This document shows positions 26,173 to 44,870 of a stretch of DNA of 64,000 nt, piece by piece (the stretch's first letter is position 1; every line of letters starts with the position of its first letter). Made by a program: the position numbers and the translations under genes. Source of the stretch: Alicyclobacillaceae bacterium (GTDB taxonomy: Bacteria > Bacillota > Bacilli > Kyrpidiales > Kyrpidiaceae); NCBI GenBank assembly GCA_029961045.1, contig JASBVN010000036.1, forward strand, positions 6,079-70,078. The letters run 5' to 3'. The notes under the pieces are model-generated. The model saw only the letters and a program-made list of their open reading frames with translations, did no database searches and was not told the origin of the DNA.

Positions 26173-26188
26173 ACACACATATGTGTGT
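26173..26188. promoter_or_regulatory. perfect 16-bp palindrome ACACACATATGTGTGT upstream of xdhC
   Basis: Read directly from the sequence. It is flanked by a further GAGTCT...AGACTC pairing and lies ~40 nt before the xdhC GTG. Confidence 0.5.
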
Positions 26189-26228
26189 GTCGAATCAGAC
26201 TCCTGTTGCACAAAGGAGGGGACCACCC

Positions 26229-27278: not shown

Positions 27279-27282
27279 CGGC

Positions 27283-28410
27283 TCAGGGCGCCGCTGTTCG
27301 CAGCGCCCCGCCCGTCACCACCTTTTTCCAAGTCGCGACGTCGTGCACATCGACGAAGGCGTCGATATAGGGCAAGGCCGCCGACATCCCCGTCGACTTC
27401 GGCTCATATCCCGGTTCGCCGAGCAGGGGATTGATCCACACCACCCGCCCGACACGGGAGGCCAAATCGCGCATGGCCGAATGCAAACGCTGCGGATGAC
27501 CGGCGTCGAATCCATCCGACACGATGATGACGCACGTACGCCGGTGCAGGAGACTGGGATACCGGCGAAGCAACTGCTCCAGCGCGCCGCCGATCCTCGT
27601 GCCGCCCCGCAATCCCGGCAAATCGGAAAAGGGGATGCCCGCCACCCCTTTCCGCGCGATGAGGGACGTCACCCGCAACAGGCGGGTGGAAAAGAGAAAA
27701 ATTTGTGTGCGCGCCCGGGCGCGCGTGAACGACCAGGCGAGGGAAGTGATAAAAGGCGCATACGGCTTCATGGATCCGGAAATATCGATCATCAGGACAA
27801 TTCGCGGTTTGTCGGGACGGCGTTTGCGCATTTTGAGGACAAAGGGCTCCCCCGCACGGCGCAAGGCGCACCGCATGGTTTGGCGAAGATCGATTTTCTC
27901 CTTGCCCCGTAACCGCCACTTGCGGCCGCGCGGCGCATTCATCCTGCGAACGGCCAACCGGGTCAGCTGAACCACGTCCTTCAACACCCGCTCATCCGCC
28001 CGCAACGCAAACCGTTCGCCGTCGTCGGGATGATAACCGGCCAGAAACCCCTGCACAACATCCACCGGCGGACGCGACGCCCTTTCACCGGCACCGGCAC
28101 CGCCGGCCAACTCATCCGGTTGCAGGCGGCGCTTTTCCTCCAGGCGCACCTCCCGACCGAAAAAATATTGTTCAAACAAATTCGGAAAAATTCCCCATTC
28201 CGCCGGCGTCCGCGCATAAATGGCCCGGAACGCGCTACAGACCTCCTCCATGCAGTCCACGTTCAATTCGGCCAAGGCGGCAATCGCCGTCAACGTTTCG
28301 GGTATTCCCGCACGAAATCCGCGCTTTCGCAGCCAAGGCGCAAAGCCGATCACTTGCTTCACGATGTCGCCCGTCAAGCGGCCGAGCACTTCAGCCGTCA
28401 GGCGCTCCAT
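27283..28410 (-). CDS. coxE: VWA-domain CoxE-like protein
   Basis: MIDAS motif VLMIDISGSM, with the CoxE-like length and position after coxD. Confidence 0.8.
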   Translation of the reverse strand: MERLTAEVLGRLTGDIVKQVIGFAPWLRKRGFRAGIPETLTAIAALAELNVDCMEEVCSAFRAIYARTPAEWGIFPNLFEQYFFGREVRLEEKRRLQPDELAGGAGAGERASRPPVDVVQGFLAGYHPDDGERFALRADERVLKDVVQLTRLAVRRMNAPRGRKWRLRGKEKIDLRQTMRCALRRAGEPFVLKMRKRRPDKPRIVLMIDISGSMKPYAPFITSLAWSFTRARARTQIFLFSTRLLRVTSLIARKGVAGIPFSDLPGLRGGTRIGGALEQLLRRYPSLLHRRTCVIIVSDGFDAGHPQRLHSAMRDLASRVGRVVWINPLLGEPGYEPKSTGMSAALPYIDAFVDVHDVATWKKVVTGGALRTAAP

Positions 28411-29258
28411 AGCACATCGAGTCCCTTCTCTCGCAAGACGTCCATGTCTTCCTGAGTCTTCAACAAACATCCGAGGGTCAGCCGTATCACATCTTCATCC
28501 AATTCCTCCGCCCCCAGTTCCGTCAAGGCCTGGGCAAAATCGATGGATTCGGCCAATCCCGGGGGCTTGAGCAGCGACAACTTGCGCAGGCGCCGCACGC
28601 CGCGCGCCACTTGCTTGGCCAGTTGGGGGGCAATCTCCGGGACGTGCAAGGAGATGATGTCCGCTTCTTGTTCCAGCGACGGGTAATCGACCCAAACGTA
28701 CAGACAACGGCGGCGCAAAGCGTCCGACAAATCGCGCGTGCGATTGGACGTCAAGATCACAATGGGCGGCTCGTCGGCGCGAAATGTCCCCATCTCGGGA
28801 ATGGTAATTTGAAATTCCGACAGAAATTCTAACAACAACGCCTCAAATTCCTCGTCGGCGCGGTCCACTTCGTCGATCAACAGGACGGGCGCCGGCCTCT
28901 CCCTCAGTGCCCGCAAAAGCGGCCGTTCGATCAGAAACGGCTCACTGTAAAGCGCCGCCTGGTTCACGGCGCCATCGGCCAATGCCGTGCGCGCCATCAG
29001 CAACTGTTTGGGGTAATCCCAATCGTACAGCGCCTGACTCGCGTCCAACCCTTCATAGCACTGCAAGCGGACCAGGTTCACGGAACGAACGGTGGCGAGG
29101 GCTTTAGCCAGTGCCGTTTTTCCCACACCTGCAGGGCCTTCCAACAACAACGGACGGGCCAGCCGCTGCGCTAAGTACAATACAGTGGCCAGCCCTTCCT
29201 CCGCCACATAGTGGGCACGGCGCAATTCCTCCTGCAGTCGGCGCACCTGTTCGTTCAT
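28398..29258 (-). CDS. coxD: MoxR-type AAA+ ATPase CoxD
   Basis: Walker A LLEGPAGVGKT and Walker B VLLIDEVDRA. The ATG at 29258 follows GGAGGAGGAA. Confidence 0.85.
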   Translation of the reverse strand: MNEQVRRLQEELRRAHYVAEEGLATVLYLAQRLARPLLLEGPAGVGKTALAKALATVRSVNLVRLQCYEGLDASQALYDWDYPKQLLMARTALADGAVNQAALYSEPFLIERPLLRALRERPAPVLLIDEVDRADEEFEALLLEFLSEFQITIPEMGTFRADEPPIVILTSNRTRDLSDALRRRCLYVWVDYPSLEQEADIISLHVPEIAPQLAKQVARGVRRLRKLSLLKPPGLAESIDFAQALTELGAEELDEDVIRLTLGCLLKTQEDMDVLREKGLDVLWSA

Positions 29259-29283
29259 CCGTTCCTCCTCCACTTCGGTCCGT

Positions 29284-29778
29284 TCAACCTTCGTCCGACG
29301 CCGCTTTCTCCGCTACCGCGGCCCTCGTTTCCTTCGACAGGACATTCAGCGCATTCTTCAGATTGGTGAAGACCTTTTCTGTAATTTTCCGCGCCTCTCC
29401 ATCGATCAAACGTCCTCCGAGACTGGCGATCGGCCCGCTGACCACCGCGTCGCACCGCCATTTCATGTGGGTTCCGCCATCCACGTCGCTGAGCGACATT
29501 TCGGCCTTCATATCGACCCCGCTGCCCATTCCGCCGCCGCGAATCGCCAGTGAAGCCGCCGCCCCCGGTTCCGTCACGGTTAATTCGCAGGTGAGATCAA
29601 ACTTGCCGCGCACGGGTCCCACGCCGACCCTCACCAAAGTGCGAAAACGATTTTCACTCTCCACGTTCAATTCGATTAAATCGGGAATGCACGTGCCCAT
29701 TTTATGAGGATCCGTGACAAACGCCCAAACGGTCTCCCTCGGCCGATCAATTGTAAATTCTCCCTCGTATGTCCGCAT
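29284..29778 (-). CDS. coxG: SRPBCC-fold CoxG protein
   Basis: MRTYEGEFTIDRPRETVWAFVTDPHKMGTCIPD... is a typical CoxG N-terminus. GAGAGGAGG RBS. Confidence 0.8.
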   Translation of the reverse strand: MRTYEGEFTIDRPRETVWAFVTDPHKMGTCIPDLIELNVESENRFRTLVRVGVGPVRGKFDLTCELTVTEPGAAASLAIRGGGMGSGVDMKAEMSLSDVDGGTHMKWRCDAVVSGPIASLGGRLIDGEARKITEKVFTNLKNALNVLSKETRAAVAEKAASDEG

Positions 29779-29849
29779 CGCGGTGCCTCCTCTCTTGTTC
29801 TGACCAGGTCCTTATAGGGCCGTCTTCAGCCCCGGCATTCGGCGTTTCC

Positions 29850-30863
29850 TCACGCATGACTGTGCACATACTTTTCCGGATCGCGCGCAAAGCGATCCCG
29901 GCAGCCGGAGCAGCAAAAGCCGTAGGTCGTTCCGTCCCATTCAAGACGGTAGGGAGACGTCGCCAAGTCTACCGTCATCCCGCAGACCGGATCGACGACT
30001 TGCCTGCGCACCTCCCCACCTCCGTCATGGACCGGCAATTCCAACGAGCCCGAGGTTTTCTCCGGCGGTCGCCCCTCCCAGCGCGCACGCCCATTCCGGC
30101 GCCGGCGTTCCACGAGCTGCGCCAGAATACTGAGAGCGATCTCTTGCGGCCCCACGGCGCCGATATCAAACCCCGCGGGCGCGGTGATGAATTCGATCAA
30201 TTCCCTCGGCGCACCCGCCTCCGCCAGCCCGGTGCGCACCGTCGCCCAGCGCTTCGGACTGGCGACCAATCCGAGATACCGCAGCGGCAAATCGGCGAGC
30301 GCCATCAATCCCTCGACATCGTACAGGCCCATCGTGGCCACCACGCCGTACATCCCCGTCTTGGCGCGGACGGACAGTTGGCGGCGCAGCCTCGTCAGCG
30401 GATCATCCGCACTCCTTCCGGGCCCCGCTTCTTCCAGCGAGATCCGGTGCGGCGCAAACGACAACCGGGGCGCCAATTCTTCCAGCGCGCGCGCAATCGG
30501 GGAATGCCCCACAATGATCAACAGGGGATCCACATTTCTGGGCTCCAGGAACAGTTCCACCGTTCCCTCGGAGGAGCAGGTCATCGGCAGGACCGTCACA
30601 CCTTCTTCCACGTCGGCAGGCGGCTGCGGCGTCACCAGCACGAGTTTGCTTTCGCCGGTGTTCAGGCAGTCCTGCGCTTGGCCGATGACCAGTTCCCGCG
30701 TACAGTGGCCTCCGACAAACCCTTCCATCTCGCCGTCCGCCGTGACAATCGCTTTATCGCCTACCGCCGCCGAACTCGGCCGCACGCGGCGAACCACCGT
30801 CACCATCACATACGGTTCCGCCCGTTCGTCCAATTTCCGCACCGTTTCCCAGAAATGATTCAT
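29850..30863 (-). CDS. XdhC/CoxF-like maturation protein fused to a C-terminal YHS (TRASH-like) metal-binding domain
   Basis: XdhC N and Rossmann-like parts (VMVTVVRRVRPSS..., LLIIVGHSPIARAL). The C-terminus DPVCGMTVDLATSPYRLEWDGTTYGFCCSGCRDRFARDPEKYV is a YHS pattern. The start is uncertain because the RBS is weak. Confidence 0.8.
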   Translation of the reverse strand: MNHFWETVRKLDERAEPYVMVTVVRRVRPSSAAVGDKAIVTADGEMEGFVGGHCTRELVIGQAQDCLNTGESKLVLVTPQPPADVEEGVTVLPMTCSSEGTVELFLEPRNVDPLLIIVGHSPIARALEELAPRLSFAPHRISLEEAGPGRSADDPLTRLRRQLSVRAKTGMYGVVATMGLYDVEGLMALADLPLRYLGLVASPKRWATVRTGLAEAGAPRELIEFITAPAGFDIGAVGPQEIALSILAQLVERRRRNGRARWEGRPPEKTSGSLELPVHDGGGEVRRQVVDPVCGMTVDLATSPYRLEWDGTTYGFCCSGCRDRFARDPEKYVHSHA

Positions 30864-30872
30864 CCTTTCGAC

Positions 30873-30893
30873 CCGGCGGCCTAAGGCCGCCGG
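30873..30893 (-). other. intercistronic perfect hairpin between coxL and the coxF-like gene
   Basis: CCGGCGGCC-TAA-GGCCGCCGG is a 9-bp perfect stem. Confidence 0.4.
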
Positions 30894-30929
30894 ATCTTCC
30901 CCTCCTCCATCCAACCTGGCGATCCGAGT

Positions 30930-33281
30930 TCATTCTTCAATCCCGTGCTCCCTCAAAATGCTCCACACCTTCCACGGATAAATCGGCATGTCGATGTGCT
31001 CCACGCCCAGGGGAGACAGGGCATCCACCACCGCATTGACAAACGCCGCGGGAGAACCGACATTCGGCGACTCGCCCACCCCTTTCGCGCCGATCGGATG
31101 GTGCGGAGACGGCGTCACCGTCCGGTCCGTTTCCCATTTCGGGGTGTCGAGGGAAGTGGGAACCAGATAGTCCATCCAGTTCGGCGCGAGACAGTTGCCG
31201 TCCGCGTCATACGGAATGTCTTGCATGAACGCGATCGCAAACCCCTCTGTGAGCCCCCCGTGCACTTGTCCTTCGACGATCATGGGATTGATCACATTGC
31301 CGCAATCATCGACGGCCAAGAAACGCCGCACCTTGACGGCCCCCGTGCCCTTGTCGATATCGACCACCGCGATGTAAGCACCGTTTGGAAAGGTGAGGTT
31401 TGGAGGATTGTAGTAGTACGTCGCTTCCAAACCCGGTTCCATACCTTCTGGCACATTCGTATATGCGGCAAGGGCCACATCTTTCATCGTGACCGACCGG
31501 CCGGGCAGCCCCTTCGCGGAAAAGGAAGTGCCGTCCCACACCACATCGTCTTCGCCGACTTCCAACAAATGAGCGGCGATTTTGCGCGCCTTTTCGCGAA
31601 TCCTGCGCCCGCAGAGGGCCGCCGCCGCGCCGGCCGTCGGCGTGGAACGGCTGCCGTACGTGCCCAACCCGTAGGGAGCCGTGTCGGTATCGCCTTCTTC
31701 GATCAACACGTCATCCGCGCTGAGTCCCAGCTCTTCCGCGATAATTTGAGCGAAGGTCGTTTCGTGTCCCTGCCCCTGATGCCGCACGCCGAGCCGCGCG
31801 ATCACTTTGCCGGTCGGATGGACGCGGATCTCCGCGCTGTCGAACATCTTGATGCCGAGGATGTCGAAGCTGTGGGCCGGACCGGCTCCGACAATTTCGG
31901 TGAAAGTCGAAATGCCGATTCCCATGAATTCTCCCCGGGCCCGCTTTTCCGCCTGCTCTTTGCGCAATTCATCGTACCCGATGCGTTCCAGCGCGAGCTT
32001 CAGCGTTTTTTCGTAATCTCCGCTGTCGTAGACCCATCCGGTCGGGCAGCGATACGGGAACTGCTCCTTCCGAATGAAATTGCGCAGGCGCAATTCGGCC
32101 GGGTCCATCTGCAACCGGCGGGCCAATATGTCCACCACTCGTTCGATCAGGTACGAGGCTTCCGTGACGCGGAAAGAACAGCGGTATGCCACACCGCCCG
32201 GGGGCTTATTCGTATGGACGCCGTCCACCTCGACGAAGGCCGCTTTGAAATCATACGATCCTGTCACAATGCTGAACAGCCCCGCAGGGTATTTGGTCGG
32301 ATTGGCTGTGGCATCAAACGCCCCGTGGTCGGCGATCGTCTTCACGCGGAGCGCCAGCATCTTGCCGTCCTCCGTCGCCGCAATCTCCGCGGTCATGTGG
32401 TAATCGCGGGCGAAATGGGTGCTGGCGATGTTTTCCGTCCGCGTCTCAATCCACTTCACAGGCACTCCCAACTTCATGGAAGCGACAATCGCGCACACGT
32501 AACCGGGATAGATGGGGACTTTGTTGCCGAACCCACCGCCCACATCGGGGGAAATGACGTGAATCTGATGTTCGGGGAACCCCGTCACCATCGCGATCGC
32601 CGTCCGGTGGACGTGGGGCGCCTGGGAAGTGACATAAAAAGTCAACCTGCCCGTCGCGGAATTGTAGTCGGCCACGCACCCGCACGGTTCGAGCGGCGAA
32701 GGATGGACGCGCTGGAAGCGCACATCTTGTTTGACGACAACCGGCGCGTCGCGGAAAATCGCTTCGGTTTCCTCGCGGTCTCCCGCCTCCCAATGCCAGA
32801 TGTGATTCGATTTTTTCTCCTTGTCTTCGCGGAGAATGGGAGCGTCCGGCTCGAGGGCCTTGAACGGGTCCACCACAGCCGGCAAGGGTTCATAATCGAC
32901 TTCAATCAATTGAATCGCGTCCTCTGCCTGTGCGCGCGTCTCTGCGACAACCGCAGCGACCTCTTGGTATTGAAACAAGACTTTGCCCGTGGCCAACACC
33001 ATCTGCTGGTCTCCCGCCAGGGTCGGCATCCAGGCGAGGTTCATCTTGGCCAAATCCTCTCCCGTCATCACCAGCTTGACCCCCGGTGCGGCCTGGGCAG
33101 CGGACGTATCGATGCGGCGAATGCGCGCGTGCGCATACGGACTCCGCAAGATGCAGAGATAGAGCATATTCGGCAACATAATGTCGTCCACATACCGGCC
33201 TTTTCCACGGATCAGCCGCGGATCTTCCTTGCGGAGAATCGATTTACCCATCGGTCGCAATTCAGTCTGCGGCAGTGCCAC
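30930..33281 (-). CDS. coxL: aerobic carbon monoxide dehydrogenase large (Mo-Cu) subunit, form I
   Basis: The form-I active-site signature VAYRCSFR is present ([16 protein letters not shown]), plus [20 protein letters not shown] and [14 protein letters not shown] at 33281 lies 6 nt after GGGGAGGTGG; an alternative ATG lies at 33251. Confidence 0.9.
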
Positions 33282-33777
33282 TGGTAGCCACCTCCCCCAT
33301 TGCTTTCCCGGTTTCACCCGCCATTTTGCGAGCAGCCGATTGAACGGCCTTGACGATATTCATATATCCCGTGCAACGGCAGACGTTTCCGGAAAGTCCC
33401 TCGCGAATCTCCTCCTCCGTCGGCATCGGATTGTCCTGCAACAAGGCGTAGGAAGCCATGAGCATGCCGGGTGTGCAATAACCGCAATGGAGCGCGTGCT
33501 CTTCCCAAAACGCGCTCTGCAACGGGTGCAGTTCACCGTCCTTTTCCAGCCCTTCAACGGTCAACACTTCGCAACCATCGGCTTGCACCGCCAGTACGGT
33601 GCACGACTTGACCGCTTTCCCGTCCAACAGCACCGTGCAGGCGCCGCAACTGGTGGTATCACAGCCAATGTGCGTGCCCGTCAGTTTCAGTTCTTCGCGC
33701 AGAAAGTAGGCCAGCAACGTGCGCGGTTCCACATCCGCTTCGTACAGAGTCCCGTTGACTTTGACCCGGATCTTCAT
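33262..33777 (-). CDS. coxS: CO dehydrogenase small [2Fe-2S] subunit
   Basis: [11 protein letters not shown] and CGYCTPGM ... CRCTGY cysteine clusters. ATGA overlap with the coxM stop. Confidence 0.92.
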
Positions 33778-34658
33778 TGGACCCCCACCTTTCCGTGCAA
33801 CTCTTCCGCGATTTCGCGAAGTGCGCGGGCGGCAAATACGCGCAACAGATCGCGCTTATAGGCCGCGCTGCCCCGCAGGTCATCGGCGGGTTCGGCGTCT
33901 TCCGGCACCAACCTCGACGCGTTTGCGATCGTTTCCTCCGTCAGGGGTTGTCCGATGAGAGCTTTCTCCGCCCTGGCCGCTCGCAGCGGAATCGGACCGC
34001 AGGCGCAAATGCCGATCCCCGCATCGGATACGCGGCCGTCGCTCCCGAGCGCAATGTGTACAGCCAGCCCGGCAATGGCGAAATCGCCCGCCTTGCGTTC
34101 CAGTTTCATATAACGGGAAGCAGCCGGTCCGGTTGGAGACGGGAGATGCAGCGCCACGACGAGTTCATCTTCGTTCAGCGAAGTCGCAAAGGTGTCCACA
34201 AAGAAATCGTCAATGGGAATGAGCCGGTTTCCGTGCGGCCCACGCGCTTCCACCTCGGCCCTGAGCGCAATCATCGCCGTCCCCCAATCCGAAGCGGGAT
34301 CGGCGTGAACGAGCGAGCCGCCGATGGTCCCGCGGTTGCGGATCAATGGGTCGGCAATCCACCGGGCCGTGCGGGAGAGCAACGGAAAACTGTCGAAAAG
34401 TTCCGTTGCATGTTCCAATTCGGAGTGGCGCGTCATCGCCCCAATCCGCAATTTCCCGTCGACCCGGCGCCAGCCTTTGAGATCATCGATGCGGTTAATG
34501 TCGATGAGCACGGCCGGGGCTGCGATGCGTAATTTCATCATCGGCAGCAAGCTTTGGCCGCCCGCCAACACTTTGCCGTCGTAACCGTACTCGGTCATGA
34601 GGCGGATGGCCTCGTCGACCGACTCCGGGGCTTCGTACTTGAACGCATTGGGAAACAC
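33774..34658 (-). CDS. coxM: CO dehydrogenase medium FAD-binding subunit
   Basis: [31 protein letters not shown] and [16 protein letters not shown] at 34658 lies 7 nt after AAAGGAGG. Confidence 0.88.
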
Positions 34659-34798
34659 CGCGAAACCTCCTTTGTCTACCAGAGTGAGGTTGCAAGAGGT
34701 TACAAGAGGACGGGTGGCGCACTGCAATGCGAAGAATTTCCGGCTTTAAGGGCGATTTCAAGATGATAATGAAGGATATTTCTGCTTCCTGCGACCAT

Positions 34799-34857
34799 TA
34801 TATAATGTTAGAATTAATACGTAATACACCCGACCGGGTGTTTCTCAATACCTGATT
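34799..34857 (+). promoter_or_regulatory. conserved promoter/operator block, copy A (ATTATATAAT plus inverted repeat ACACCCG-AC-CGGGTGT)
   Basis: Matches the reverse complement of 26078-26136 at 47 of 59 positions. The palindromic -10 serves the kinase operon (+) and coxM (-). The inverted repeat is centred near -43 of the putative coxM promoter. Confidence 0.6.
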
Positions 34858-34910
34858 CGGTACGTGCGATCTCCTGCCGCCAAAGCCCTCGAAAGGACGG
34901 GAGACAGCGT

Positions 34911-36167
34911 ATGCGTGAACCCTCGGATCACGCTGAAGTCGCGCAGATTTTGTCCGAAGCCCTGGAGCGCCTACAGCCGTGGATGGAGGCGGGACTGGAA
35001 TCCCTCTTGCAAGCGGTCGTGGACTACGCGCGCAAATTGGTGCGCGCTTCGTTTGCCGGAATCATCATTTTCGAACCGGAGGACCCGTCCACATTCCGGT
35101 ACTTTAAGGTTTCCGGATGGCATTTGAAGCCCGCCGAATTTCCGAAAGGGCACGGGATGTACTTTGTGCCGGCGAAAACCGGACACTCGCTGCGGGTCGA
35201 ATCCATTTCCGGACACCCCCTGTCCGTCGGTGTGCCGCCAAACCACCCGCCCGTCGAAGCATTGCTGGCCATCCCCTTGCGGCACCACGGCAAGCCGATG
35301 GGTTGCCTGTTTTTCGGCAAACCGCCCAAGGCAGGGGCGTTTACCGAAAACGATGAAGACATCATGAACGGGTTTGCTTCGATGTGCGCCACCGCCATTG
35401 CCTGGTGCGACCAAAAAGATGAAAACCGCTTTCAGATCATGGCGGAAGAACGGCGGCGAATTGCGGAGGAATTGCACGATTCCCTGTCGCAAACGTTGTT
35501 CGCGGTGGCGCGCGAGATCGACCGTTTGGAACGAGCCCTGCCGACGGTCGAGGAGAAAGATGAGTGGCGGGCACGTGTCGCGCGCTTGCGCGAATTGACC
35601 GAGCAATGCCAGGCGGAACTGCGCGCCATCTTATTCCGCCTCATGAACGATGAGCCAACCCCCAAAGTGACGGCCTTGACCCATCTGGTACAAGAATTTG
35701 AACGAGTGAGCGGAATTTCCACACAACTGATCACAGAGGGGAACTTCGGCCGGTTGAGCTTGCCCGTCCGCCAAACGATTCTCAAGATCATCGCGGAATC
35801 CTTGACCAATATTTACCGCCACGCAAACAGCCCAACCGCCCTCGTCCACGTGCTGGTCGGTGCCAATCAGGTCACCGTGGCCGTACAGGATGCCGGGGTC
35901 GGCATTTCCGACGAGGCCCTTCACTTGATGAACCATCCGACCGGTCACTTTGGATTGCACTCGATGGCGCGGTCCGTCGCCGATCTCAAGGGAAAGTTGG
36001 AGATTTTTCGCAATGAGGACGGGGGAACCACCGTGCGCTGCACGTTTCCGGTTCACGGAGACTCGAATCCGGAACAAAACCGGAACGACAATCTCGACTC
36101 GATTCCGGTCGGCCCGAGCCCAGTCTACGGTCCGGCTGCCGATTCGCAAAGAGGGTGGAATCCTTGA
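34911..36167 (+). CDS. soluble GAF-domain sensor histidine kinase (HisKA_3 type)
   Basis: No TM segment by eye. GAF-like N-terminal half, H-box EERRRIAEELHDSLSQTL, then N, G1 and G2 boxes (LTNIYRHANS, VQDAGVGIS, GHFGLHSM). Confidence 0.85.
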   Translation: MREPSDHAEVAQILSEALERLQPWMEAGLESLLQAVVDYARKLVRASFAGIIIFEPEDPSTFRYFKVSGWHLKPAEFPKGHGMYFVPAKTGHSLRVESISGHPLSVGVPPNHPPVEALLAIPLRHHGKPMGCLFFGKPPKAGAFTENDEDIMNGFASMCATAIAWCDQKDENRFQIMAEERRRIAEELHDSLSQTLFAVAREIDRLERALPTVEEKDEWRARVARLRELTEQCQAELRAILFRLMNDEPTPKVTALTHLVQEFERVSGISTQLITEGNFGRLSLPVRQTILKIIAESLTNIYRHANSPTALVHVLVGANQVTVAVQDAGVGISDEALHLMNHPTGHFGLHSMARSVADLKGKLEIFRNEDGGTTVRCTFPVHGDSNPEQNRNDNLDSIPVGPSPVYGPAADSQRGWNP

Positions 36168-36796
36168 CGGAGCGCATTGTCGTCGTTGACGACCACGAAC
36201 TGGTTCAGATCGGGTTGCACACCCTCCTGACCGATCGCGGGTTGGAGGTGGTTGGGCAGGCCAGCACCGGATCGGAGGGACTTGAGCTCATCCAATCTTT
36301 GCAACCGGATCTCGCCCTGATCGACGTGCGCCTGCCGGATATGAGCGGGATCGAGCTGTGCCAGTCTGTGCGGAAAACCAACCCCCACATCCGCCTGGCC
36401 GTCCTCACCGCGGCAATGGATAAAAATGTCGTCCACGCTTGCCTTCAAACAGGGGTTCAGGGCTACCTGCTGAAGGATATGCCCGGGGAAGAGTTGTTCC
36501 GGTCGATTCGCAAGATTTTGGACGGCAAATCCGTGCTCGATCCGTCCGTGACGGAGTACGCTTTGCACTGGATCGAATCACACAGGGAGAGCGAACCGTG
36601 CAAAGATGCGCTCGGCCTTCGGGATGTGGAGATCCTGCGGCTGATGGCCCAAGGGCGGACCAATCAAGAAATCGGAAGGCACTTGCACTTGTCCGAAAAC
36701 ACCGTGAAAGTCATCGTGAATGAAATCTACCGTCGCCTCGGCGTCAGGAGCCGCGTGGAAGCCGTGATGGAGGCACACCGGCGCGGATTGCTATAA
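36164..36796 (+). CDS. NarL/LuxR-family response regulator
   Basis: Receiver domain (IVVVDDHELV ... LALIDVRLPDMSG) and HTH (LGLRDVEILRLMAQGRTNQEIGRHLHLSENTVKV). The TTG at 36164 overlaps the kinase stop (TTGA); an alternative GTG lies at 36155. Confidence 0.88.
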   Translation: MTERIVVVDDHELVQIGLHTLLTDRGLEVVGQASTGSEGLELIQSLQPDLALIDVRLPDMSGIELCQSVRKTNPHIRLAVLTAAMDKNVVHACLQTGVQGYLLKDMPGEELFRSIRKILDGKSVLDPSVTEYALHWIESHRESEPCKDALGLRDVEILRLMAQGRTNQEIGRHLHLSENTVKVIVNEIYRRLGVRSRVEAVMEAHRRGLL

Positions 36797-36802
36797 TAAC
36801 AC

Positions 36803-36826
36803 GGCCGCCGGATTTCTCCGGCGGCC
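36803..36826. terminator. hairpin between the convergent regulator and moaA genes
   Basis: GGCCGCCGGA-tttc-TCCGGCGGCC is a 10-bp perfect stem. The T-runs are poor. Confidence 0.5.
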
Positions 36827-36846
36827 ATTCATAGGAAAACTCTGCA

Positions 36847-37881
36847 TTATCCTCCGATTTGGGACATGCGCCGCACGGTTGGCGTGTGGCTGCGGCTCTT
36901 GCCCTCCAGCGCTTCCGCCATCTCATGGCGTTCCGGCTTGATGTCCAGGGCCCGGAAAAACAATTCTTCAATGGCCTTTTCATCCCCGCCGCAACGCCGC
37001 ACGTTGAATTCCTCCTGCCAGTACAAACACGGCTTGAGGTAGCCGTCGGCCGTCAAACGCAGGCGGTTGCACGCGGCGCAAAAATGCTCGCTGACGGGAT
37101 GGATCAAACCAAAGGCCCCGAGCCCACCGCGTATCCGCCAGTTTTCCGCCGGACCGTTGCCCGGCACCTGAACCGGTTCGATCTCATATCCCAACTCCTC
37201 ACACCGGTCCAGTACCCGCCGCAATGGCAGATACGCATTCTTCCAGGTCTCATCTTCGTGACCGATCGGCATGTACTCGATAAACCGCACCACATAGGGT
37301 TTTTCGATCGACAGTCGCAGAAAATCGTCGATCTCGTCTTCATTGAATCCTTTCAGCAACACCACGTTGATCTTGATCGGCGACATCCCGGCCCGCTCCG
37401 CCGCCTTCAATCCCTCCAACACCCGGGAGAGATCCCCGCCGCGGGTGATGACCGCAAACCGGTCCGGCCGGAGCGAGTCGATGCTGATGTTGATCCGCCG
37501 CAGGCCCGCCCGGCGCAGGCGCTCCGCCCGCCGGGCCAAAAGGACGCCGTTGGTGGTCATCGCCATGTCTTCGATCCCGGGAATGGCTCCCAAGGCCTCG
37601 ATGAGCCGGTCGATGCCCGGACGGACCAGGGGTTCTCCCCCGGTGATCCGCAGGCGCCGGACGCCCAACCGCGCCGCCACGCGGACGACCCGCACGATTT
37701 CTTCATCGGTCATCAACCGCCCGGAATCCATGAACTGGACCCCTTCGGCGGGCATGCAATACAGACAGCGAAGGTTACACCGGTCGGTGACGGAGATTCG
37801 AAGATAATCGTGAACGCGGCCGAATCGATCGACGAGACGGCCGGTACCGATATTCTCGCTAAGGGACACCAGAGGTCCCAC
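36847..37881 (-). CDS. moaA: GTP 3',8-cyclase (molybdenum cofactor biosynthesis, radical SAM)
   Basis: CNLRCLYCMP radical-SAM cluster motif and C-terminal CAACNRLRLTADGYLKPCL. Confidence 0.92.
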   Translation of the reverse strand: MGPLVSLSENIGTGRLVDRFGRVHDYLRISVTDRCNLRCLYCMPAEGVQFMDSGRLMTDEEIVRVVRVAARLGVRRLRITGGEPLVRPGIDRLIEALGAIPGIEDMAMTTNGVLLARRAERLRRAGLRRINISIDSLRPDRFAVITRGGDLSRVLEGLKAAERAGMSPIKINVVLLKGFNEDEIDDFLRLSIEKPYVVRFIEYMPIGHEDETWKNAYLPLRRVLDRCEELGYEIEPVQVPGNGPAENWRIRGGLGAFGLIHPVSEHFCAACNRLRLTADGYLKPCLYWQEEFNVRRCGGDEKAIEELFFRALDIKPERHEMAEALEGKSRSHTPTVRRMSQIGG

Positions 37882-37901
37882 GGGCTCTCCCCCATTTCCT
37901 T

Positions 37902-38546
37902 CTATGATGAACCGGCGGGGCGGTTATCCCCTTCCGGCGACAACCATTCTTGAATCATTTCGTAGTCTTCCGGGGTATCGACGTCCACTCCGGTCCAGAG
38001 GTCATCCCAGGGAATGACCTTCATGGCCTCGCGAAACCTCTGAAGAACCGACCTCCCGCCTTCATCCCCTTCTAAATTTTCAAAAAAAGGAAAGAGCGCA
38101 GCGTCCAAAACGACCGGGTGGCCCGGCACTCCTTGAAACAGAGGCCGGACAATTTTCACCCCGCGTATGCGGTTCACCCGGTACTCATGCACCAACGCCT
38201 TCATCAGAGCCCGGGAAACGAGGGGTTGATCCGCCAATAAAATGAATCCCGCATCCACCTGCCCCTGCAATTGCCGGATGCCGACTTTCAGAGAAGACGA
38301 CATCCCTTTCTGAAAATCCGGATTCTCGACGATTCGAACGTCAAGGTCGGCCGTCTCCCGCCGGAAGCGCTCCGCGTCACCGCCCGCCACGACGACCACA
38401 GGTTGCAGCCCCGCCCCTAAAGCGGTTTCAACGCTATAGCGGAACAGCGGCTTACCGCCAAGGGGCAGCCACAATTTGGGCCTCCCCATGCGGGTGGACA
38501 TGCCCGCAGCGAGGACGACGGCACCGATGCGCAACGGCTGGTCCAC
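37902..38546 (-). CDS. molybdenum cofactor cytidylyltransferase-like (MobA/MocA family) nucleotidyltransferase
   Basis: AVVLAAGMSTRMGRPKLWLPLGGKPL is the N-terminal signature. The MocA versus MobA assignment is inferred from the CODH context (MCD cofactor). Confidence 0.75.
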   Translation of the reverse strand: MDQPLRIGAVVLAAGMSTRMGRPKLWLPLGGKPLFRYSVETALGAGLQPVVVVAGGDAERFRRETADLDVRIVENPDFQKGMSSSLKVGIRQLQGQVDAGFILLADQPLVSRALMKALVHEYRVNRIRGVKIVRPLFQGVPGHPVVLDAALFPFFENLEGDEGGRSVLQRFREAMKVIPWDDLWTGVDVDTPEDYEMIQEWLSPEGDNRPAGSS

Positions 38547-39950: not shown

Positions 39951-40910
39951 ATGCCGCTTCATCCGAAAGCCGCCGCGCTGTTGGAACAACTGGCCCGCTC
40001 GGGCGCACCTCCCCTGCACACCTTGCCCCCCGAGGTGGCCCGCCGGGCCTTCGACGCCCTGTTCGGGCGGCTGAACGCGGCCCGGTCCGGAGAAGGCGCC
40101 GATCTCACAAAACGGGACCTCACCATTCCCGGGCCGAAACGCGATATCCCCCTCCGGTTGTACTCCCCGCAGGCTCCGGGCCCGCATCCGGTACTGGTCT
40201 ATTTTCACGGAGGCGGATTCGTCCTGGGAACGCTGGACATGTACGACTCCCTGTGCGCCACCCTGGCCCGGGAAGCCTCCTGCGCCGTCATATCGGTGGA
40301 TTACGCCCTGGCGCCCGAACATCCGTTTCCCGAGCCGGTGGAGGAAGCATACGCCGCCACCTCGTGGATTCAGACAAACGGCGGTGAGCTGGGGCTGGAT
40401 CCCTCTCGGGTCGCCGTCGGCGGAGATAGCGCGGGCGGCAACCTGGCGGCGGTGGTCTGCCTTTTGAACCGCGATCGGGGCGGACCGGACCTGTGCGGCC
40501 AACTGCTCATTTACCCGGCCACCGACCTGTCCGGACAACCGTTTCCTTCTAAGAAAGAATACCTGCACGGCTATTTTTTAGAGCGAGAGGACTTGATCTG
40601 GTTTCAGAGAAATTATTTACCGAATCTAGAGGATGCCCGCAACCCCCTGGCCTCGCCGCTGTTGGCGGAAAATCTGGCCGGTCTGCCCCCCGCCATGGTG
40701 ATGACCGCGGAATTCGATCCGCTCCGGGACGAGGGGGAAGCCTATGCCGACCGCCTTCGCGAAACCGGAACTCCGGTACAGAGCCGGCGTTACGAAGGCA
40801 TGATCCACGGATTCGTCTCCATGGGGGACGTGTTCCCGGAGGCGAGGGAAGCCTTGAAAGAGATCGGCCGCTGGCTTCGCGACGCCTTTGCCGGAAAAAC
40901 CGGAACTTGA
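39951..40910 (+). CDS. alpha/beta hydrolase, hormone-sensitive-lipase-type esterase
   Basis: HGGGF oxyanion motif, GDSAGG nucleophile elbow and C-terminal HGF. ATG after GAAAGGAGG. Confidence 0.88.
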   Translation: MPLHPKAAALLEQLARSGAPPLHTLPPEVARRAFDALFGRLNAARSGEGADLTKRDLTIPGPKRDIPLRLYSPQAPGPHPVLVYFHGGGFVLGTLDMYDSLCATLAREASCAVISVDYALAPEHPFPEPVEEAYAATSWIQTNGGELGLDPSRVAVGGDSAGGNLAAVVCLLNRDRGGPDLCGQLLIYPATDLSGQPFPSKKEYLHGYFLEREDLIWFQRNYLPNLEDARNPLASPLLAENLAGLPPAMVMTAEFDPLRDEGEAYADRLRETGTPVQSRRYEGMIHGFVSMGDVFPEAREALKEIGRWLRDAFAGKTGT

Positions 40911-41021
40911 GCGACTGTTGACCGGTCTTCCATCGGCCGCAGCCCGTCACGCGCCGGCCGCTCCCTCACGTATGGTATTCCAAAGGGTCTTCAACCCGGT
41001 TTTCCAAGGAGGGAGCCCGCC

Positions 41022-41363
41022 ATGTGGTGGATGCGGCGGCCGCCCTGGCCGATTGCGCGGCTGGACCTGGATTTGCCCCGACTTCCCCGCTGCCGAATCT
41101 CCGAAAACGAGCGGACTGTCGAAGTGGAGGTGGAGGTGCCGCCTTGGTGCGATCCCGATGACATCGAAGTGCGGATCGAACCGCGCGCAGCTCATTTTCG
41201 CGCCGGGACGCTCCACGAGGTAAAGCGGGACCGCCCTCCATCCTTCCACCGCCGGCAACAGGCGTGGCATCACAGCGTCACTCTCCCGGCGGAAGTCGTA
41301 CCGCAATCTGTCCGGAGGCGAACCGGATCCGGAGTACTCCATCTGACCCTGGACAAAGCCTGA
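41022..41363 (+). CDS. Hsp20/alpha-crystallin-like small heat-shock protein (divergent)
   Basis: ENERTVEVEVEVPPWCDPDDIEVRIEP ... SVTLPAEVVPQSVRRRTGSGVLHLTLDKA follows the ACD pattern. AAGGAGGGA RBS. Confidence 0.6.
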   Translation: MWWMRRPPWPIARLDLDLPRLPRCRISENERTVEVEVEVPPWCDPDDIEVRIEPRAAHFRAGTLHEVKRDRPPSFHRRQQAWHHSVTLPAEVVPQSVRRRTGSGVLHLTLDKA

Positions 41364-41377
41364 CCCTGGACAAAGCC
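41344..41377 (+). repeat. perfect 17-bp tandem duplication (TGACCCTGGACAAAGCC x2)
   Basis: Read directly from the sequence. The TGA of the second copy is the hsp20 stop codon. Confidence 0.95.
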
Positions 41378-41440
41378 GGCCGGTCGCCGGAGGGAGGGCC
41401 TCCGGCAGTTGTTAAGTCGATTTTCTCAACTGGGCAAAAA

Positions 41441-41482
41441 GGGTGCAAGACGGAACGGCGTCCGTCCTGCACCCTGCTTTTG
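41441..41482. terminator. bidirectional rho-independent terminator
   Basis: GGGTGCAAGACGGA-acggcg-TCCGTCCTGCACCC (one mismatch) with TGCTTTTGG downstream on the plus strand and TTTTTG on the minus strand. Confidence 0.7.
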
Positions 41483-41494
41483 GCATCTGTCGAT

Positions 41495-42601
41495 TTACAC
41501 TCCGACCGGATCCGGGCGCCCGGCGCGGAGAGAGTCCGCCGACCGCCGGGTCCGCTCCACCGCCTCTCGCGTGAGAGCGCGCTCAAAACTGCGAAACGCC
41601 CCCAAGCGGAACCCGTGTTTCCGGGCGAGACGGTCGATTTCCCATACCCGTTCGGCCGTGAGATTCCGGCCCAGGGTAAACGGTTCGATCCGCCCTTCCA
41701 GAGCCAGCACCATGGTTTCCGCCATGCAGGCGTACACCGTTCCGGGCGGAAGACCCAGGTCCAACTTCCCCGCATACCCGCCCGGTACCTTTACCAATCC
41801 CCCGTCGATCACCAGCACGTCCGGACGAAGATCCGCCACTTGCCGGGAAACGTCCCGGGGCCGCGCCACGTCGCAAACCACGGCACCGGGCAACAGATCG
41901 GACGCTTCGACCACCGCTTCCAGCGCACTGGAACAAGCCACCACCAGGGGAGCCCGGCGCAAAATCCGGCGGATGTCGTCTTCGACCGACAGCCGCGCCT
42001 CCAATCCCCGCTGGCGAAAATATTCCCAGAGTACCTCCGCCTTCTGAGCATTCCGCACATGAGCGTACACAAAACGGCCGCGGGCTAAGAGGATTTCTGC
42101 GCACACTCTCCCGATCGCCCCCGTCGCTCCGAGCACCGCCCAGGGGGTCCTCTCCCCGTCCCACCCCATCCACGCCGCTCCTTGCTCGGCCGCTTCCAGG
42201 GCGACCGCCACCGTATAGCTGTTCCCCGTCGTCACGGCCAGCGGGAGGGCCTTAGACAGACTCACGCCGGCGTCGCCGGCCACCGCCGTGAAGGCGCCGA
42301 GCCCCAAGATGTCCGCCCCCAGTTTGGCGGCCCGCCTGCCGGCCGCCAGAAGTTTTCGATAGACCACAGGCCACGGCCATTCGAGCAGCTGGCGGGAGGT
42401 CAGCGGCGTGCCCACCAGCCATCCCGACGTCCGGGCCCCCGCCTCGCTTTCCACCCTTTCGATCCGGTCGGCCACCAAGGGCGGAAAATGTCGCAGGAGG
42501 CGATCCAACACCGGGTCCGGCAGCGCGGCCAACCCCGGCAATTTTCTCGCCACATCCTGCCGCTCAAGAGGATGGATCAAAAACGCGAACCGGAACGCCA
42601 C
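41495..42601 (-). CDS. acyl-ACP/acyl-CoA reductase-like (cyanobacterial AAR family) NAD(P)-dependent reductase
   Basis: Collinear by eye with Synechococcus AAR as I recall it: FAFLIHPLE, LGLGAFTAV, VTTGNSYTV, LGATGAIGRV, VIDGG, and VYACMAETMVLALEG, which contains the Cys aligned with the catalytic Cys. GTG start after GGAGGTGA. Confidence 0.7.
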   Translation of the reverse strand: MAFRFAFLIHPLERQDVARKLPGLAALPDPVLDRLLRHFPPLVADRIERVESEAGARTSGWLVGTPLTSRQLLEWPWPVVYRKLLAAGRRAAKLGADILGLGAFTAVAGDAGVSLSKALPLAVTTGNSYTVAVALEAAEQGAAWMGWDGERTPWAVLGATGAIGRVCAEILLARGRFVYAHVRNAQKAEVLWEYFRQRGLEARLSVEDDIRRILRRAPLVVACSSALEAVVEASDLLPGAVVCDVARPRDVSRQVADLRPDVLVIDGGLVKVPGGYAGKLDLGLPPGTVYACMAETMVLALEGRIEPFTLGRNLTAERVWEIDRLARKHGFRLGAFRSFERALTREAVERTRRSADSLRAGRPDPVGV

Positions 42602-43049
42602 GGTCGCTCACCTCCGTCCGGCTCTGCAACGCCCGCAACAGTTTGGCCATGCTCTGACCCAACTTCCACTGCGCCACCGGGTGCAACATCGCCGCCAATC
42701 CCGGCAGGCCGATCTCAAAATCGCAAAAGAACTCCACCGCCGTCCGGTCCGTTCCTTCCGAACACACGTCCCAATAACCGGCGAACCGTTTCAAATCGCC
42801 GTGCAACTGCCGGTACGCAATGCGTCCCCCGGCTTCCCCTTCCGTCCATTCATCCCGTTCGGTCCAACGGACCCGGCTTCCGCCGAGACGGGCCTCCCAG
42901 GCGCTGACCGTCCACCCTTCCCCGCGTTCGACGATGTGAACCGAGACCAAATCGGACACCCGTTCGGGATACCGTTCAAAATCCCCGACCCATTGAAACA
43001 CCTCACGCCAAGGCTTCTCGCAGACTTCCCTCACCCGGACCGTCGGCAC
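42564..43049 (-). CDS. SRPBCC (START/polyketide-cyclase-like) ligand-binding protein
   Basis: Size and the WREVFQWVGDFERYPERV ... RTAVEFFCDFEIG pattern. GTG at 43049 follows AGGAAGGAGGGG. It overlaps both neighbouring genes. Confidence 0.65.
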   Translation of the reverse strand: MPTVRVREVCEKPWREVFQWVGDFERYPERVSDLVSVHIVERGEGWTVSAWEARLGGSRVRWTERDEWTEGEAGGRIAYRQLHGDLKRFAGYWDVCSEGTDRTAVEFFCDFEIGLPGLAAMLHPVAQWKLGQSMAKLLRALQSRTEVSDRGVPVRVFDPSS

Positions 43050-44421
43050 CCGCTTCCCCTCCTTCCTGTGGCCGTCCGGCTTCCCCGGCACTTCCCTCCC
43101 GATCGCCGTACGCGCCCCAATCGGCGTCCCCGACGAGGGCCTCCAAGCGCGCCAGCACGCCGGCCCACCTCTCCACGACCCCCGACAGCACGAGGCGGTC
43201 GGCGATGAGCGGCGGTTCGATCCGGACGACCCGGTGCGAATTCAGAGCGAAGGCGGTCAGCACGCCCTGCTCCACCAATGCGCTCATGACGAGGCCACCC
43301 CGCGCCTCGTCGGCAAACTCCACGCCGAGCAAAAAACCCTCTCCCCGGACTTCTCGAATCCAAGCCGGATATTCGGCGGACAAGCGAACCAGTTGCCGTT
43401 TCAACCACGCCCCGGTTTCCGCCACCCGTTCCGGAATTTCGGCTTCCTCCAGAAAACGGAGGGTCGCCAACCCGGCCGCCGCAGCCAGGGCATTGCCGCC
43501 GAAGGTCGACGTATGAACCAGGGGGTCGCCCCAAAAGGCCCGGGCCGCATCCGGGCGCGCGACAAAACACCCGATCGGCATCACGCCGCCCCCCAGGGCC
43601 TTGGCCAGACATACGATATCCGGCACCACGTTTTCCTTTTCCATGGCGAACCATCGACCCGTGCGCCCGAGACCCGTCTGCACTTCGTCCAAGATCAACA
43701 GCGTTCCGGTGCGGTCGCAGATCCCCCGCACGGCGCGCAAATACCCCTCCGGCGGCACGCGGACGCCCCCCTCTCCCTGTACCGGCTCCAGGATGACGGC
43801 TGCCGTACGGTTTGTCACGGCTTTCTCTAAAGCCTTGACGTCCCCGTACGGCACGTGCGTCACACCGGGCAACAGGGGATAAAACGGGGCGCGGTACCGT
43901 TCCCGGCCGGAGACCGACAGGGCGCCCAAAGTCTTGCCGTGAAACCCTCCTCGGGCGGCCACGAACTCCGTCCGTCCGGTGGCGGCCCTGGCCAATTTCA
44001 GCGCCCCTTCCACCGCTTCGGCTCCACTGTTGCAAAAGAAACTGTACTGCAGGTCTCCCGGCAGCCGCGCAGCCAGCGCTTCCGCAAGTTCCGCCGCGGG
44101 GCGGCCGGGCATGACTTTCGACGACAGCGCCATGCGCTCCAACTGATCCCGCACCGCCCGGAGCACCGCGAGGGGTCGGTGCCCGAAAGGCAAGGATCCG
44201 TATCCGGACACGCAGTCGATGTACCGCCGCCCTTCTTCGTCATACAGAAAACAACCTTCTCCCCGGGCTTCACCGGAACTCACTCCCATCAAGCGATAAA
44301 GCTTGGCCAGGCCGGGGTTGATGTAAGACTCATACAGTTCCGCCACGCCGATCTTGCCTTCTGAACGCAACACTTCCTCACCTCCGGACACCCTTAGAAT
44401 GTCCGGTTCCAAATTTTCCAT
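43003..44421 (-). CDS. class III (omega) PLP-dependent aminotransferase
   Basis: FFCNSGAEAVEGALKLAR, LILDEVQTGLGRTGRWF and HTSTFGGN. The start is uncertain; a TTG 17 codons downstream has a better RBS. Confidence 0.85.
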   Translation of the reverse strand: MENLEPDILRVSGGEEVLRSEGKIGVAELYESYINPGLAKLYRLMGVSSGEARGEGCFLYDEEGRRYIDCVSGYGSLPFGHRPLAVLRAVRDQLERMALSSKVMPGRPAAELAEALAARLPGDLQYSFFCNSGAEAVEGALKLARAATGRTEFVAARGGFHGKTLGALSVSGRERYRAPFYPLLPGVTHVPYGDVKALEKAVTNRTAAVILEPVQGEGGVRVPPEGYLRAVRGICDRTGTLLILDEVQTGLGRTGRWFAMEKENVVPDIVCLAKALGGGVMPIGCFVARPDAARAFWGDPLVHTSTFGGNALAAAAGLATLRFLEEAEIPERVAETGAWLKRQLVRLSAEYPAWIREVRGEGFLLGVEFADEARGGLVMSALVEQGVLTAFALNSHRVVRIEPPLIADRLVLSGVVERWAGVLARLEALVGDADWGAYGDREGSAGEAGRPQEGGEAGADGPGEGSLREALA

Positions 44422-44545
44422 TCAAAGGAATAACAAAAAATCACCACCGGAATCCGACTTGAAAAGCGGGGAAGAAACCGGAATGAAGAGCCGTTCGTTG
44501 GGGAAAGGTGGAGAAAGAACTTTCCGGGAAGGAGGAAACAAGCCC

Positions 44546-44785
44546 GTGAGATTTCGACCGCGTCCGAAAAAAAACCGCTTAACCTTTGAAACGGGGTGGA
44601 GACAGAACATCTTACCCGAAGAGTTTCCGGAAGGACCGTACGGGATGGCCGACGATCCCCAGCCCTCCGGCAAATCGACACCTTGGGAACAAGGGCAGCG
44701 AGTCGTGTCGCGGTTCCGGGACGAAAATCCCGCCTTTTCCGACCGCAAGAGCCCAGACGGAAACGAGTTGCCAGACCTGACTTAA
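44546..44785 (+). CDS. possible small hypothetical protein (79 aa)
   Basis: GTG lies 9 nt after GGAAGGAGG. VRFRPRPKKNRLTFETGWRQNILPEEFPEGPYGMADDP... I recognise no family. Confidence 0.3.
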   Translation: MRFRPRPKKNRLTFETGWRQNILPEEFPEGPYGMADDPQPSGKSTPWEQGQRVVSRFRDENPAFSDRKSPDGNELPDLT

Positions 44786-44870
44786 CCCGAACCGCCGGCG
44801 CGGTGCGGCGCCCTTTCCACTCCCGTTTCGGATGCGGCCGGGGAGTACCTTCCCCGGCCGCGCCGCGCTT

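Follow-up and report, generated by a model that had tools for sequence, protein, structure and literature searches.

A candidate split PigE/TamH-type module: a conserved aminotransferase–SRPBCC–reductase operon in a Kyrpidia-like member of the Alicyclobacillaceae

The reduction of an acyl thioester to an aldehyde, followed by its transamination to a primary amine, has been described for fused enzymes in which a domain that resembles the cyanobacterial acyl-ACP (acyl carrier protein) reductase, AAR, is joined to a class III aminotransferase. In this study, we analysed a stretch of 64,000 nucleotides (contig JASBVN010000036.1; hereafter the window) from the chromosome of a Kyrpidia-like bacterium of the Alicyclobacillaceae; the nearest named homologues of its proteins were found in Kyrpidia sp. 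(77%) and K. spormannii (71%). Three adjoining genes of the window encode an aminotransferase, an SRPBCC protein and an AAR-like reductase, and their sequences suggest that they probably form one operon for a split version of the PigE/TamH-type module, which would lead from a thioester via an aldehyde to a primary amine. The basic chemistry is already known, and the trio is a solid lead more than a surprise.

This thioester-to-amine logic was proposed for KecF in 2019, revised for PigE in 2021 and demonstrated for TamH in 2022; Firmicutes fusions (transaminase half) followed in 2024 and the non-homologous TabE/TabA in 2025. In the MAP pathway of prodigiosin biosynthesis in Serratia, PigE acts first as a thioester reductase and then as a transaminase of the resulting aldehyde, as in vivo and bioinformatic evidence has indicated (PMC8341465). 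Its AAR-like N-domain and class III aminotransferase C-domain correspond to the window enzymes; it is about 32% identical to the window reductase and shares the Cys of the CMAET motif. However, PigE is a single polypeptide with the domain order opposite to that of the window genes and without an SRPBCC component, it belongs to a pigment cluster with PigD and PigB, and its substrate is a 3-acetyloctanoyl thioester. The summed scores of the window enzymes against the PigE model (622 bits) lie below its equivalog cut-off of 850 bits, which places them outside the PigE equivalog. PtTamH of Pseudoalteromonas tunicata (tambjamine YP1), together with TamA, was shown in vitro to turn C12-ACP into dodecanal and this into dodecylamine, with L-Glu as the donor (PMC9594044). 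According to the descriptions in the papers, from which its homology to the window proteins was taken, PtTamH has an N-terminal class III transaminase and a C-terminal AAR-family reductase, which is the order of the window genes, but it is fused, NADH-specific, served by TamA as a dedicated adenylation-ACP partner and encoded in a secondary-metabolite cluster without an SRPBCC gene. The chemistry that the initial annotation had suggested for the locus is therefore supported by fused homologues that perform it, PtTamH in vitro and PigE on in vivo and bioinformatic grounds.

The fusions KecF and PP_2782 and those of Thermaerobacter and Thermincola, some of which come from thermophilic Firmicutes, combine a COG5322 (AAR-like) domain with a class III transaminase, and their transaminase domains favour linear or aliphatic aldehydes and L-Glu (PMC6498172, PMC10829540). 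They differ from the window proteins in being fused, and their published activity is that of the transaminase half; KecF and PP_2782 are encoded in polyketide-type clusters, whereas the thermophile fusions occur in other kinds of neighbourhood. The 120 closest homologues of each window enzyme were all of single-domain length and did not include the KecF-type fusions, which are thus a more distant clade. The cyanobacterial AAR has in common with the window reductase the three-domain fold (template modelling score 0.74-0.83), the catalytic Cys, the GxTGxIG loop, the basic triad for the 2'-phosphate and, according to the proposed route, the handing of its aldehyde to a partner. However, their identity is only about 25-28%, Tyr247 is replaced by Arg, and the partners in the window would be an aminotransferase and an SRPBCC protein instead of aldehyde-deformylating oxygenase (ADO), so that the product would be an amine and not an alkane. 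No ferritin-like ADO was found among the neighbours identified by Pfam.

An unfused arrangement has been described in Streptomyces albus, in which the thioester reductase TabE and the omega-transaminase TabA make the amine of tambjamine BE-18591 (bioRxiv 10.1101/2025.08.11.669332). As in the case of CpkC-TR/CpkG of coelimycin, a stand-alone reductase is followed by a stand-alone omega-transaminase to give a fatty or polyketide amine, but TabE is of the aldehyde dehydrogenase (ALDH)/LuxC type, and neither TabE nor the polyketide thioester reductase (TR) domains are homologous to the AAR fold, which makes them analogues only. Polyketide TR domains belong to the short-chain dehydrogenase/reductase (SDR) type. 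The SRPBCC protein finds its likeness in the Thermus thermophilus START-like protein TTHA0849 and in ZhuI, TcmN and WhiE-ORFVI, which have the same helix-grip fold and similar length (about 145-165 aa); ZhuI, TcmN and WhiE, however, have poly-beta-keto chains as their substrates and belong to type II polyketide synthase clusters, and the window has no such cluster.

The initial annotation knew of no described pathway of this kind in Bacillales. This held only in part, because the logic had been published for Proteobacteria and the transaminase domain of aminotransferase–AAR fusions of thermophilic Firmicutes had been characterised (PMC10829540), while the split, SRPBCC-containing form of the Alicyclobacillaceae was not found in the literature. 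Searches for SRPBCC with AAR and an aminotransferase, for COG5322 and for AAR in Firmicutes returned papers on fusion enzymes only, and among them there was no description of a form with three unfused genes, one of them for an SRPBCC protein, of the conservation of the trio in Alicyclobacillaceae outside biosynthetic clusters or of the Bacillota reductase and aminotransferase–SRPBCC pair as one pathway.

Layout and conservation of the operon

The features of the locus are as follows:
43003..44421, minus strand: class III (omega) pyridoxal phosphate (PLP) aminotransferase, 472 aa from ATG 44421, PF00202
42564..43049, minus strand: SRPBCC (START/Bet v 1-like, Polyketide_cyc) protein, 161 aa from GTG 43049, PF03364
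41495..42601, minus strand: predicted AAR/PigE-N-domain-like NAD(P)H-dependent acyl-thioester reductase, 368 aa, GTG start
41436..41475, minus strand: intrinsic terminator at the operon end, a 15-bp GC-rich hairpin followed by UUUUU
44422..44870, minus strand: intergenic region from acsA to the operon (upstream side), with a weak acsA terminator-like site at 44575-44594

The three open reading frames (ORFs) were present on the minus strand as initially annotated; they lie head to tail directly after acsA of the acsA-acuABC locus, and the same gene order was found on a 99%-identical metagenome contig. Their translational overlap was also borne out by reading the DNA: the SRPBCC gene from GTG 43049 overlaps the aminotransferase stop by 47 nt, and the reductase start (GTG 42601) overlaps the SRPBCC end (stop 42564) by 38 nt. 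All three overlapping genes have their own ribosome-binding site (RBS), with GGAGGTGAG located 5 nt upstream of the reductase start, and they share only one terminator. Its hairpin lies directly 3' of the reductase stop and has a folding energy of -34.2 kcal/mol (z -5.84), which was reached by none of 200 shuffled sequences. The longest SRPBCC ORF would extend over 42564-43091 (175 aa), but the shorter form from GTG 43049 has AGGAGG ahead of it and the same start was called on the 99%-identical contig, and this GTG is most likely the best start. For the aminotransferase, the gene callers differed between ATG 44421 and GTG 44373, and the latter, which has a strong RBS and is better placed, may be the start instead (456 aa). 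A sigma-70 promoter scan upstream of the aminotransferase gave no minus-strand site, and an Rfam search in and upstream of the operon gave no riboswitch or other known RNA at E<=1.

In Kyrpidia-like genomes, the aminotransferase carries a low-complexity C-terminal tail of about 40 aa that is rich in Gly, Glu and Ala (region 43003-43130, overlapping the next gene), and the SRPBCC protein carries one of about 15 aa (42564-42610; predicted local distance difference test, pLDDT, <50). The gene overlaps result from these tails. In Tumebacillus, Effusibacillus and Sporomusa, the tails are absent and short intergenic gaps take the place of the overlaps.

The trio was also found in K. spormannii and two further Kyrpidia-like contigs, at three Tumebacillus loci (including T. 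algifaecis and T. avium) and in Effusibacillus dendaii, with a protein identity of about 40-60% across the genera. The co-occurrence that the initial annotation had proposed to check is thus synteny in three genera of the Alicyclobacillaceae (Kyrpidia, Tumebacillus and Effusibacillus), and the module is a conserved chromosomal unit outside any recognisable biosynthetic gene cluster. An SRPBCC orthologue follows the aminotransferase in these three genera as well as in Sporomusa and Halanaerocella, where the two genes form a tight unit and the reductase is absent from the locus. The reductase and the aminotransferase–SRPBCC pair have separate loci in Negativicutes and Halanaerobiales; outside the Alicyclobacillaceae, their co-occurrence in a genome was checked at the genus level (Sporomusa, Halanaerobiales).

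Fusions provide a further link between the three proteins. Both window enzymes match a single curated model, PigE, each in one of its halves. An exhaustive profile search of the SRPBCC family, which yielded 589 cluster representatives at E <= 1e-10, revealed a natural fusion of 525 aa (P0327, L175:2613-4190) in which an SRPBCC domain of the operon type is joined to an AAR-like domain with the Cys kept. A protein of 719 aa (P0300) combines SRPBCC with a LuxD-like acyl-ACP acyltransferase and a methyltransferase, and a fusion to a C-terminus that resembles beta-ketoacyl-ACP synthase III (KAS III) was weaker (E 6e-4, below the Pfam cut-off). Because these partners (LuxD-like and, more weakly, KAS III-like) are acyl-ACP-related, they point to acyl-chain chemistry. 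No aminotransferase is nearby at the P0327 locus. Fusions of SRPBCC to PilZ were also seen among P0312, P0347, P0350, P0362 and P0378.

Families, folds and residues of the three proteins

The reductase belongs to the AAR/PigE (COG5322 thioester-reductase) superfamily. Over positions 49-356, it matches the NCBIfam PigE model (NF053554) with 201.8 bits (E 2e-59), while the AAR model TIGR04058 gives 74.3 bits (E 1e-20), which is short of the equivalog cut-off of 449.7, so that the protein is not a member of the long-chain AAR equivalog proper. Among the sequences of the PDB, PigE (4PPM, E 1e-38) and the Synechococcus enzyme SeAAR (6JZQ, E 1.4e-15) were matched. No grouping with a characterised family other than AAR was seen, which agrees with the initial placement of the protein close to AAR, the PigE N-domain (202 bits) and AAR (74 bits) being the best matches. 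The sole Pfam match was a Shikimate_DH-type Rossmann domain (25 bits). The database names that make the protein a shikimate or amino-acid dehydrogenase were rejected, since only the Rossmann part matches these families and the whole protein fits the AAR/PigE fold. The AlphaFold2 model (pLDDT 84.7) has the three domains of AAR, i.e., the N-domain, the Rossmann mid-domain and the C-domain, and it superposes on the SeAAR structures 6JZQ, 6JZU, 6JZY and 6JZZ with template modelling (TM) scores of 0.70-0.83 (E 1e-16 to 1e-18), compared to <=0.42 for the next fold class. In a distance tree, the window reductase grouped with Kyrpidia, then with homologues from Tumebacillus and Clostridia/Negativicutes and then with PigE, and SeAAR was placed outside.

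The catalytic and cofactor residues of SeAAR were taken as defined in the structure paper (PMC7089970). They correspond to the window reductase as follows: C294 to C292, GATGDIG to GATGAIG (158-164), R189 to R183, R193 to K187 and R314 to R312. The sequence blocks FAFLIHPLE, LGLGAFTAV, VTTGNSYTV, LGATGAIGRV, VIDGG and VYACMAETMVLALEG, on which the likeness to AAR had first been noticed by eye, are all in the reductase translation, and HMMER alignment placed the Cys of YACMAET opposite the catalytic Cys294 of the Synechococcus AAR (MFACFAEAM), as had been proposed. This Cys292 is invariant in alignment A1 (14 sequences), as are R183 and R312, and it is kept in all 119 full-length homologues that were retrieved; its conservation among orthologues, on which the original reading depended, is therefore complete in this set.

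The second enzyme is a class III (omega) aminotransferase of fold-type I, as the initial annotation had it, with 348 bits against PF00202 (Aminotran_3; cut-off 30.5). Its score against residues 378-735 of the PigE model was 419.8 bits (E 2.6e-125). The NCBIfam putrescine aminotransferase model (NF008570) gave 439 bits, below the cut-off of 612, and TIGR03372 gave 388.8 bits against a cut-off of 658.65, so that the enzyme falls outside the PatA/YgjG equivalog. The nearest solved structures were E. coli YgjG (370 bits), a T. thermophilus enzyme of the ArgD/LysJ type (305 bits) and PigE (4PPM, 304 bits). The PLP-Lys motif is PDIVCLAKALGGG, and the Schiff-base Lys motif LAKALGGG is kept in 120 of the 120 homologues.

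For the protein encoded between them, the initial assignment to the SRPBCC lipid-binding fold was upheld by PF03364 (Polyketide_cyc, 60.8 bits) and PF10604 (37.3 bits), both above the cut-off. Its AlphaFold2 model (pLDDT 81) comprises seven strands and a C-terminal helix (116-148), which is the helix-grip fold, and the nearest folds are TTHA0849 (2D4R; TM 0.78-0.86, 27% identity), followed by the aromatase/cyclases ZhuI, TcmN and WhiE. Invariant polar residues of the family are E64, D66, Q81, D85 and K87. The type II toxin name RatA (NF007999) was rejected because the protein reaches 19.7 bits against 258 and is flanked by enzymes without an antitoxin; the 'RatA' names in databases look like over-annotation.

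The proposed route and the evidence that weighs against it

Gene architecture, catalytic residues, folds and the links by conservation and fusion are direct observations, and the route that is suggested by homology would have three steps. In the first, an acyl group would be transferred from acyl-ACP or acyl-CoA to Cys292 of the reductase, and reduction with NAD(P)H would then release it as a free aldehyde. The cofactor is more likely NADPH than NADH, since the predicted reductase retains the Arg/Lys triad to which the 2'-phosphate is bound in AAR. In the second, the cavity of the SRPBCC protein would hold either the acyl chain or the aldehyde, which is hydrophobic and reactive, and pass it on; such a carrier would stand in for the channelling in the fused enzymes and in the cyanobacterial AAR-ADO complex. 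The SRPBCC protein is possibly also catalytic, as a cyclase/dehydratase. In the third, the class III aminotransferase would turn the aldehyde into a primary amine and, by analogy with the characterised systems, L-glutamate is most likely the amine donor.

Several observations weigh against this reading and have to be set beside it. Aldehyde release with transamination was demonstrated for homologues (TamH and PigE) only, no ACP or acyl-activating partner was identified, and the window enzymes miss all of the curated equivalog cut-offs, those of PigE, AAR and PatA. The next of these observations concerns the acyl tunnel, which in SeAAR is lined by Tyr247, a residue in contact with His7 (PMC7089970). 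This residue is an invariant Arg in the window reductase family (CDVARPRDV) and Leu in PigE, and the Arg may be a clue to a different, non-fatty and possibly anionic substrate. The substrate could accordingly be a short or functionalised (carboxylated, oxo- or hydroxy-) acyl thioester, the product an omega-amino acid or a cyclising amino-ketone and the SRPBCC protein a cyclase/dehydratase. PigE itself acts on a keto-acyl thioester and the amine that it makes cyclises, the aromatase/cyclases ZhuI, TcmN and WhiE are among the nearest SRPBCC folds, the invariant polar residues of the SRPBCC family would suit such a role, and the reductase identity of about 50% across phyla suggests a single fixed substrate. 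However, Arg247 may equally be a plain structural swap for the Tyr247-His7 contact, and the positions at the tunnel mouth are still hydrophobic (M21, Y23 and Y26 of SeAAR correspond to L21, L24 and L27). Moreover, the aminotransferase is nearest to YgjG and PigE, with a small hydrophobic active-site region according to the cited paper, and none of the neighbouring genes would provide an acyl chain with such functional groups. We consider a substrate of this kind unlikely.

It also has to be taken into account that the top curated score of the aminotransferase is that of a catabolic putrescine aminotransferase. By analogy with CoA-acylating aldehyde dehydrogenases, the operon could work in the reverse direction, in amine catabolism: the aminotransferase would deaminate a primary amine (an alkylamine or a diamine, e.g., putrescine), and the reductase would oxidise the aldehyde via a Cys thiohemiacetal to acyl-CoA or acyl-ACP. 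The best matches of the aminotransferase, PatA/YgjG (439 and 370 bits), are in line with such a role, and in all of the Alicyclobacillaceae that were examined the operon adjoins the acsA-acuABC carbon-utilisation locus. As is known from enzymology in general, the chemistry of a Cys-thioester mechanism can run in both directions. On the other hand, AAR, PigE and TamH, i.e., all of the characterised members of the family, run reductively, the score of 439 bits misses the PatA cut-off of 612, and the SRPBCC partner and the acyl-ACP-related fusion partners suit biosynthesis better. The acsA neighbourhood is, moreover, not retained outside the Alicyclobacillaceae, and the adjacency looks like ordinary synteny. 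Amine catabolism is, in our estimate, rather improbable.

The remaining difficulty lies in the distribution of the genes. The reductase family has more than 7800 homologues at E <= 1e-5, which is a lower bound, and its members in Bacilli, Clostridia, Negativicutes, Halanaerobiales, Chloroflexota and Armatimonadota share about 50% identity. When 80 species genomes were sampled, the aminotransferase and SRPBCC genes adjoin the reductase at only one of the 80 AAR-like loci, that of Tumebacillus avium, while at about 47 of the 80 a gene for a protein of about 300 aa, here called X300, lies immediately upstream of the reductase. This pairing is found in most Clostridia, Negativicutes and Halanaerobiales and in some Armatimonadota, in the conserved housekeeping block dusB-(X320)-HTH-X300-reductase-greA-lysS (HTH, helix-turn-helix). 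Sampling in reverse, we found the reductase directly downstream at 49 of the 60 metagenome loci of X300 with enough flank, and no aminotransferase or SRPBCC gene near X300 at any of 80 metagenome loci. X300 is not encoded in the window. Its family (alignment A2; examples are L004:6078-6980, L006:5973-6875 and L007:6084-6986) has a mean column identity of 60% and gave no profile match in Pfam, NCBIfam or the PDB sequences. The reductase may have in X300 a partner that has so far been overlooked and, because this pairing is common and adjacency to the aminotransferase is so rare (1/80), the reductase may have a role that is independent of the aminotransferase. At a few metagenome loci (L105:8948-9868 and L133:9034-9927), a divergent protein of about 300 aa follows X300 in place of the standard reductase; in the L105 translation, a Rossmann-like segment and a stretch like the reductase Cys motif but without the Cys were seen by eye, and it looks like a degenerate paralogue.

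Taken to its end, this distribution could mean that the adjacency in the window is historical, with X300 as the true partner of the reductase and the aminotransferase–SRPBCC pair as an unrelated unit that was relocated by chance in the Alicyclobacillaceae. The frequency with which X300 precedes the reductase, in genomes as in metagenomes, and the separate loci in Negativicutes and Halanaerobiales would agree with such a history. The genes of the window, however, overlap translationally and have one terminator, the trio was kept over three genera despite a protein identity of only about 50-60%, and independent fusions join an aminotransferase to an AAR-like domain (PigE, TamH and KecF) and SRPBCC to an AAR-like domain (P0327). 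A chance relocation thus seems very unlikely. Since the reductase and the aminotransferase–SRPBCC pair are mostly unlinked elsewhere, the operon of the Alicyclobacillaceae is the arrangement that ties both together.

For the split thioester-to-amine module, this leads to a wider suggestion, which we put forward only tentatively, namely that the operon connects the otherwise scattered sets, the reductase and the aminotransferase–SRPBCC pair, as parts of a pathway that is widespread in Bacillota, with some Armatimonadota, and has escaped description. This pathway would make an amine-bearing lipid or metabolite from acyl-ACP, with the SRPBCC protein as an aldehyde chaperone, and would belong to primary or envelope metabolism instead of an antibiotic cluster. 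The reductase and the pair are found in core-genome contexts of many Bacillota, and their product could be an amine or lipid that is common but has gone unnoticed. Should the module function in the proposed way, it would be a naturally unfused, thermophile-derived route from an acyl thioester to a primary amine with a third, carrier-like component that is absent from the characterised fused enzymes, which would be of interest for fatty-amine biocatalysis. The operon also supplies an idea of how a reactive aldehyde could be transferred between separate enzymes.

Surroundings of the operon in the window

The neighbours of the operon in the window include acsA and genes for an Hsp20 protein, an esterase and a WYL regulator. 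The latter three were ruled out as parts of the system, as neither K. spormannii nor Tumebacillus has them beside the trio. A small conserved ORF (44483-44785, plus strand, start uncertain) of about 60-100 aa lies between acsA and the operon and contains the motif PEEFPEGPYG...GKS.PWE.GQ...DENPAFSD...ELPDL. Counterparts with 45-79% identity lie upstream of the trio in Kyrpidia spormannii, Tumebacillus and Effusibacillus, and neither Pfam nor NCBIfam gave a family match; the ORF may be either a component of the system or mere local synteny. The G+C content is 0.645-0.661 over 40001-44000, where the operon lies, compared to about 0.60 in most of the window. As synteny is kept across genera, this increase is not by itself a sign of recent transfer.

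A molybdenum hydroxylase cluster of the CO-dehydrogenase/xanthine-dehydrogenase type, with XdhC and a CoxE-like VWA protein, occupies 26181-38546 and appears to be unrelated to the trio. It includes a MoCoBD large subunit (30930-33317) and an FAD subunit (33774-34727), and its hydroxylase genes are followed by a histidine kinase and a response regulator and then by ORFs that resemble MoaA and MobA by eye.

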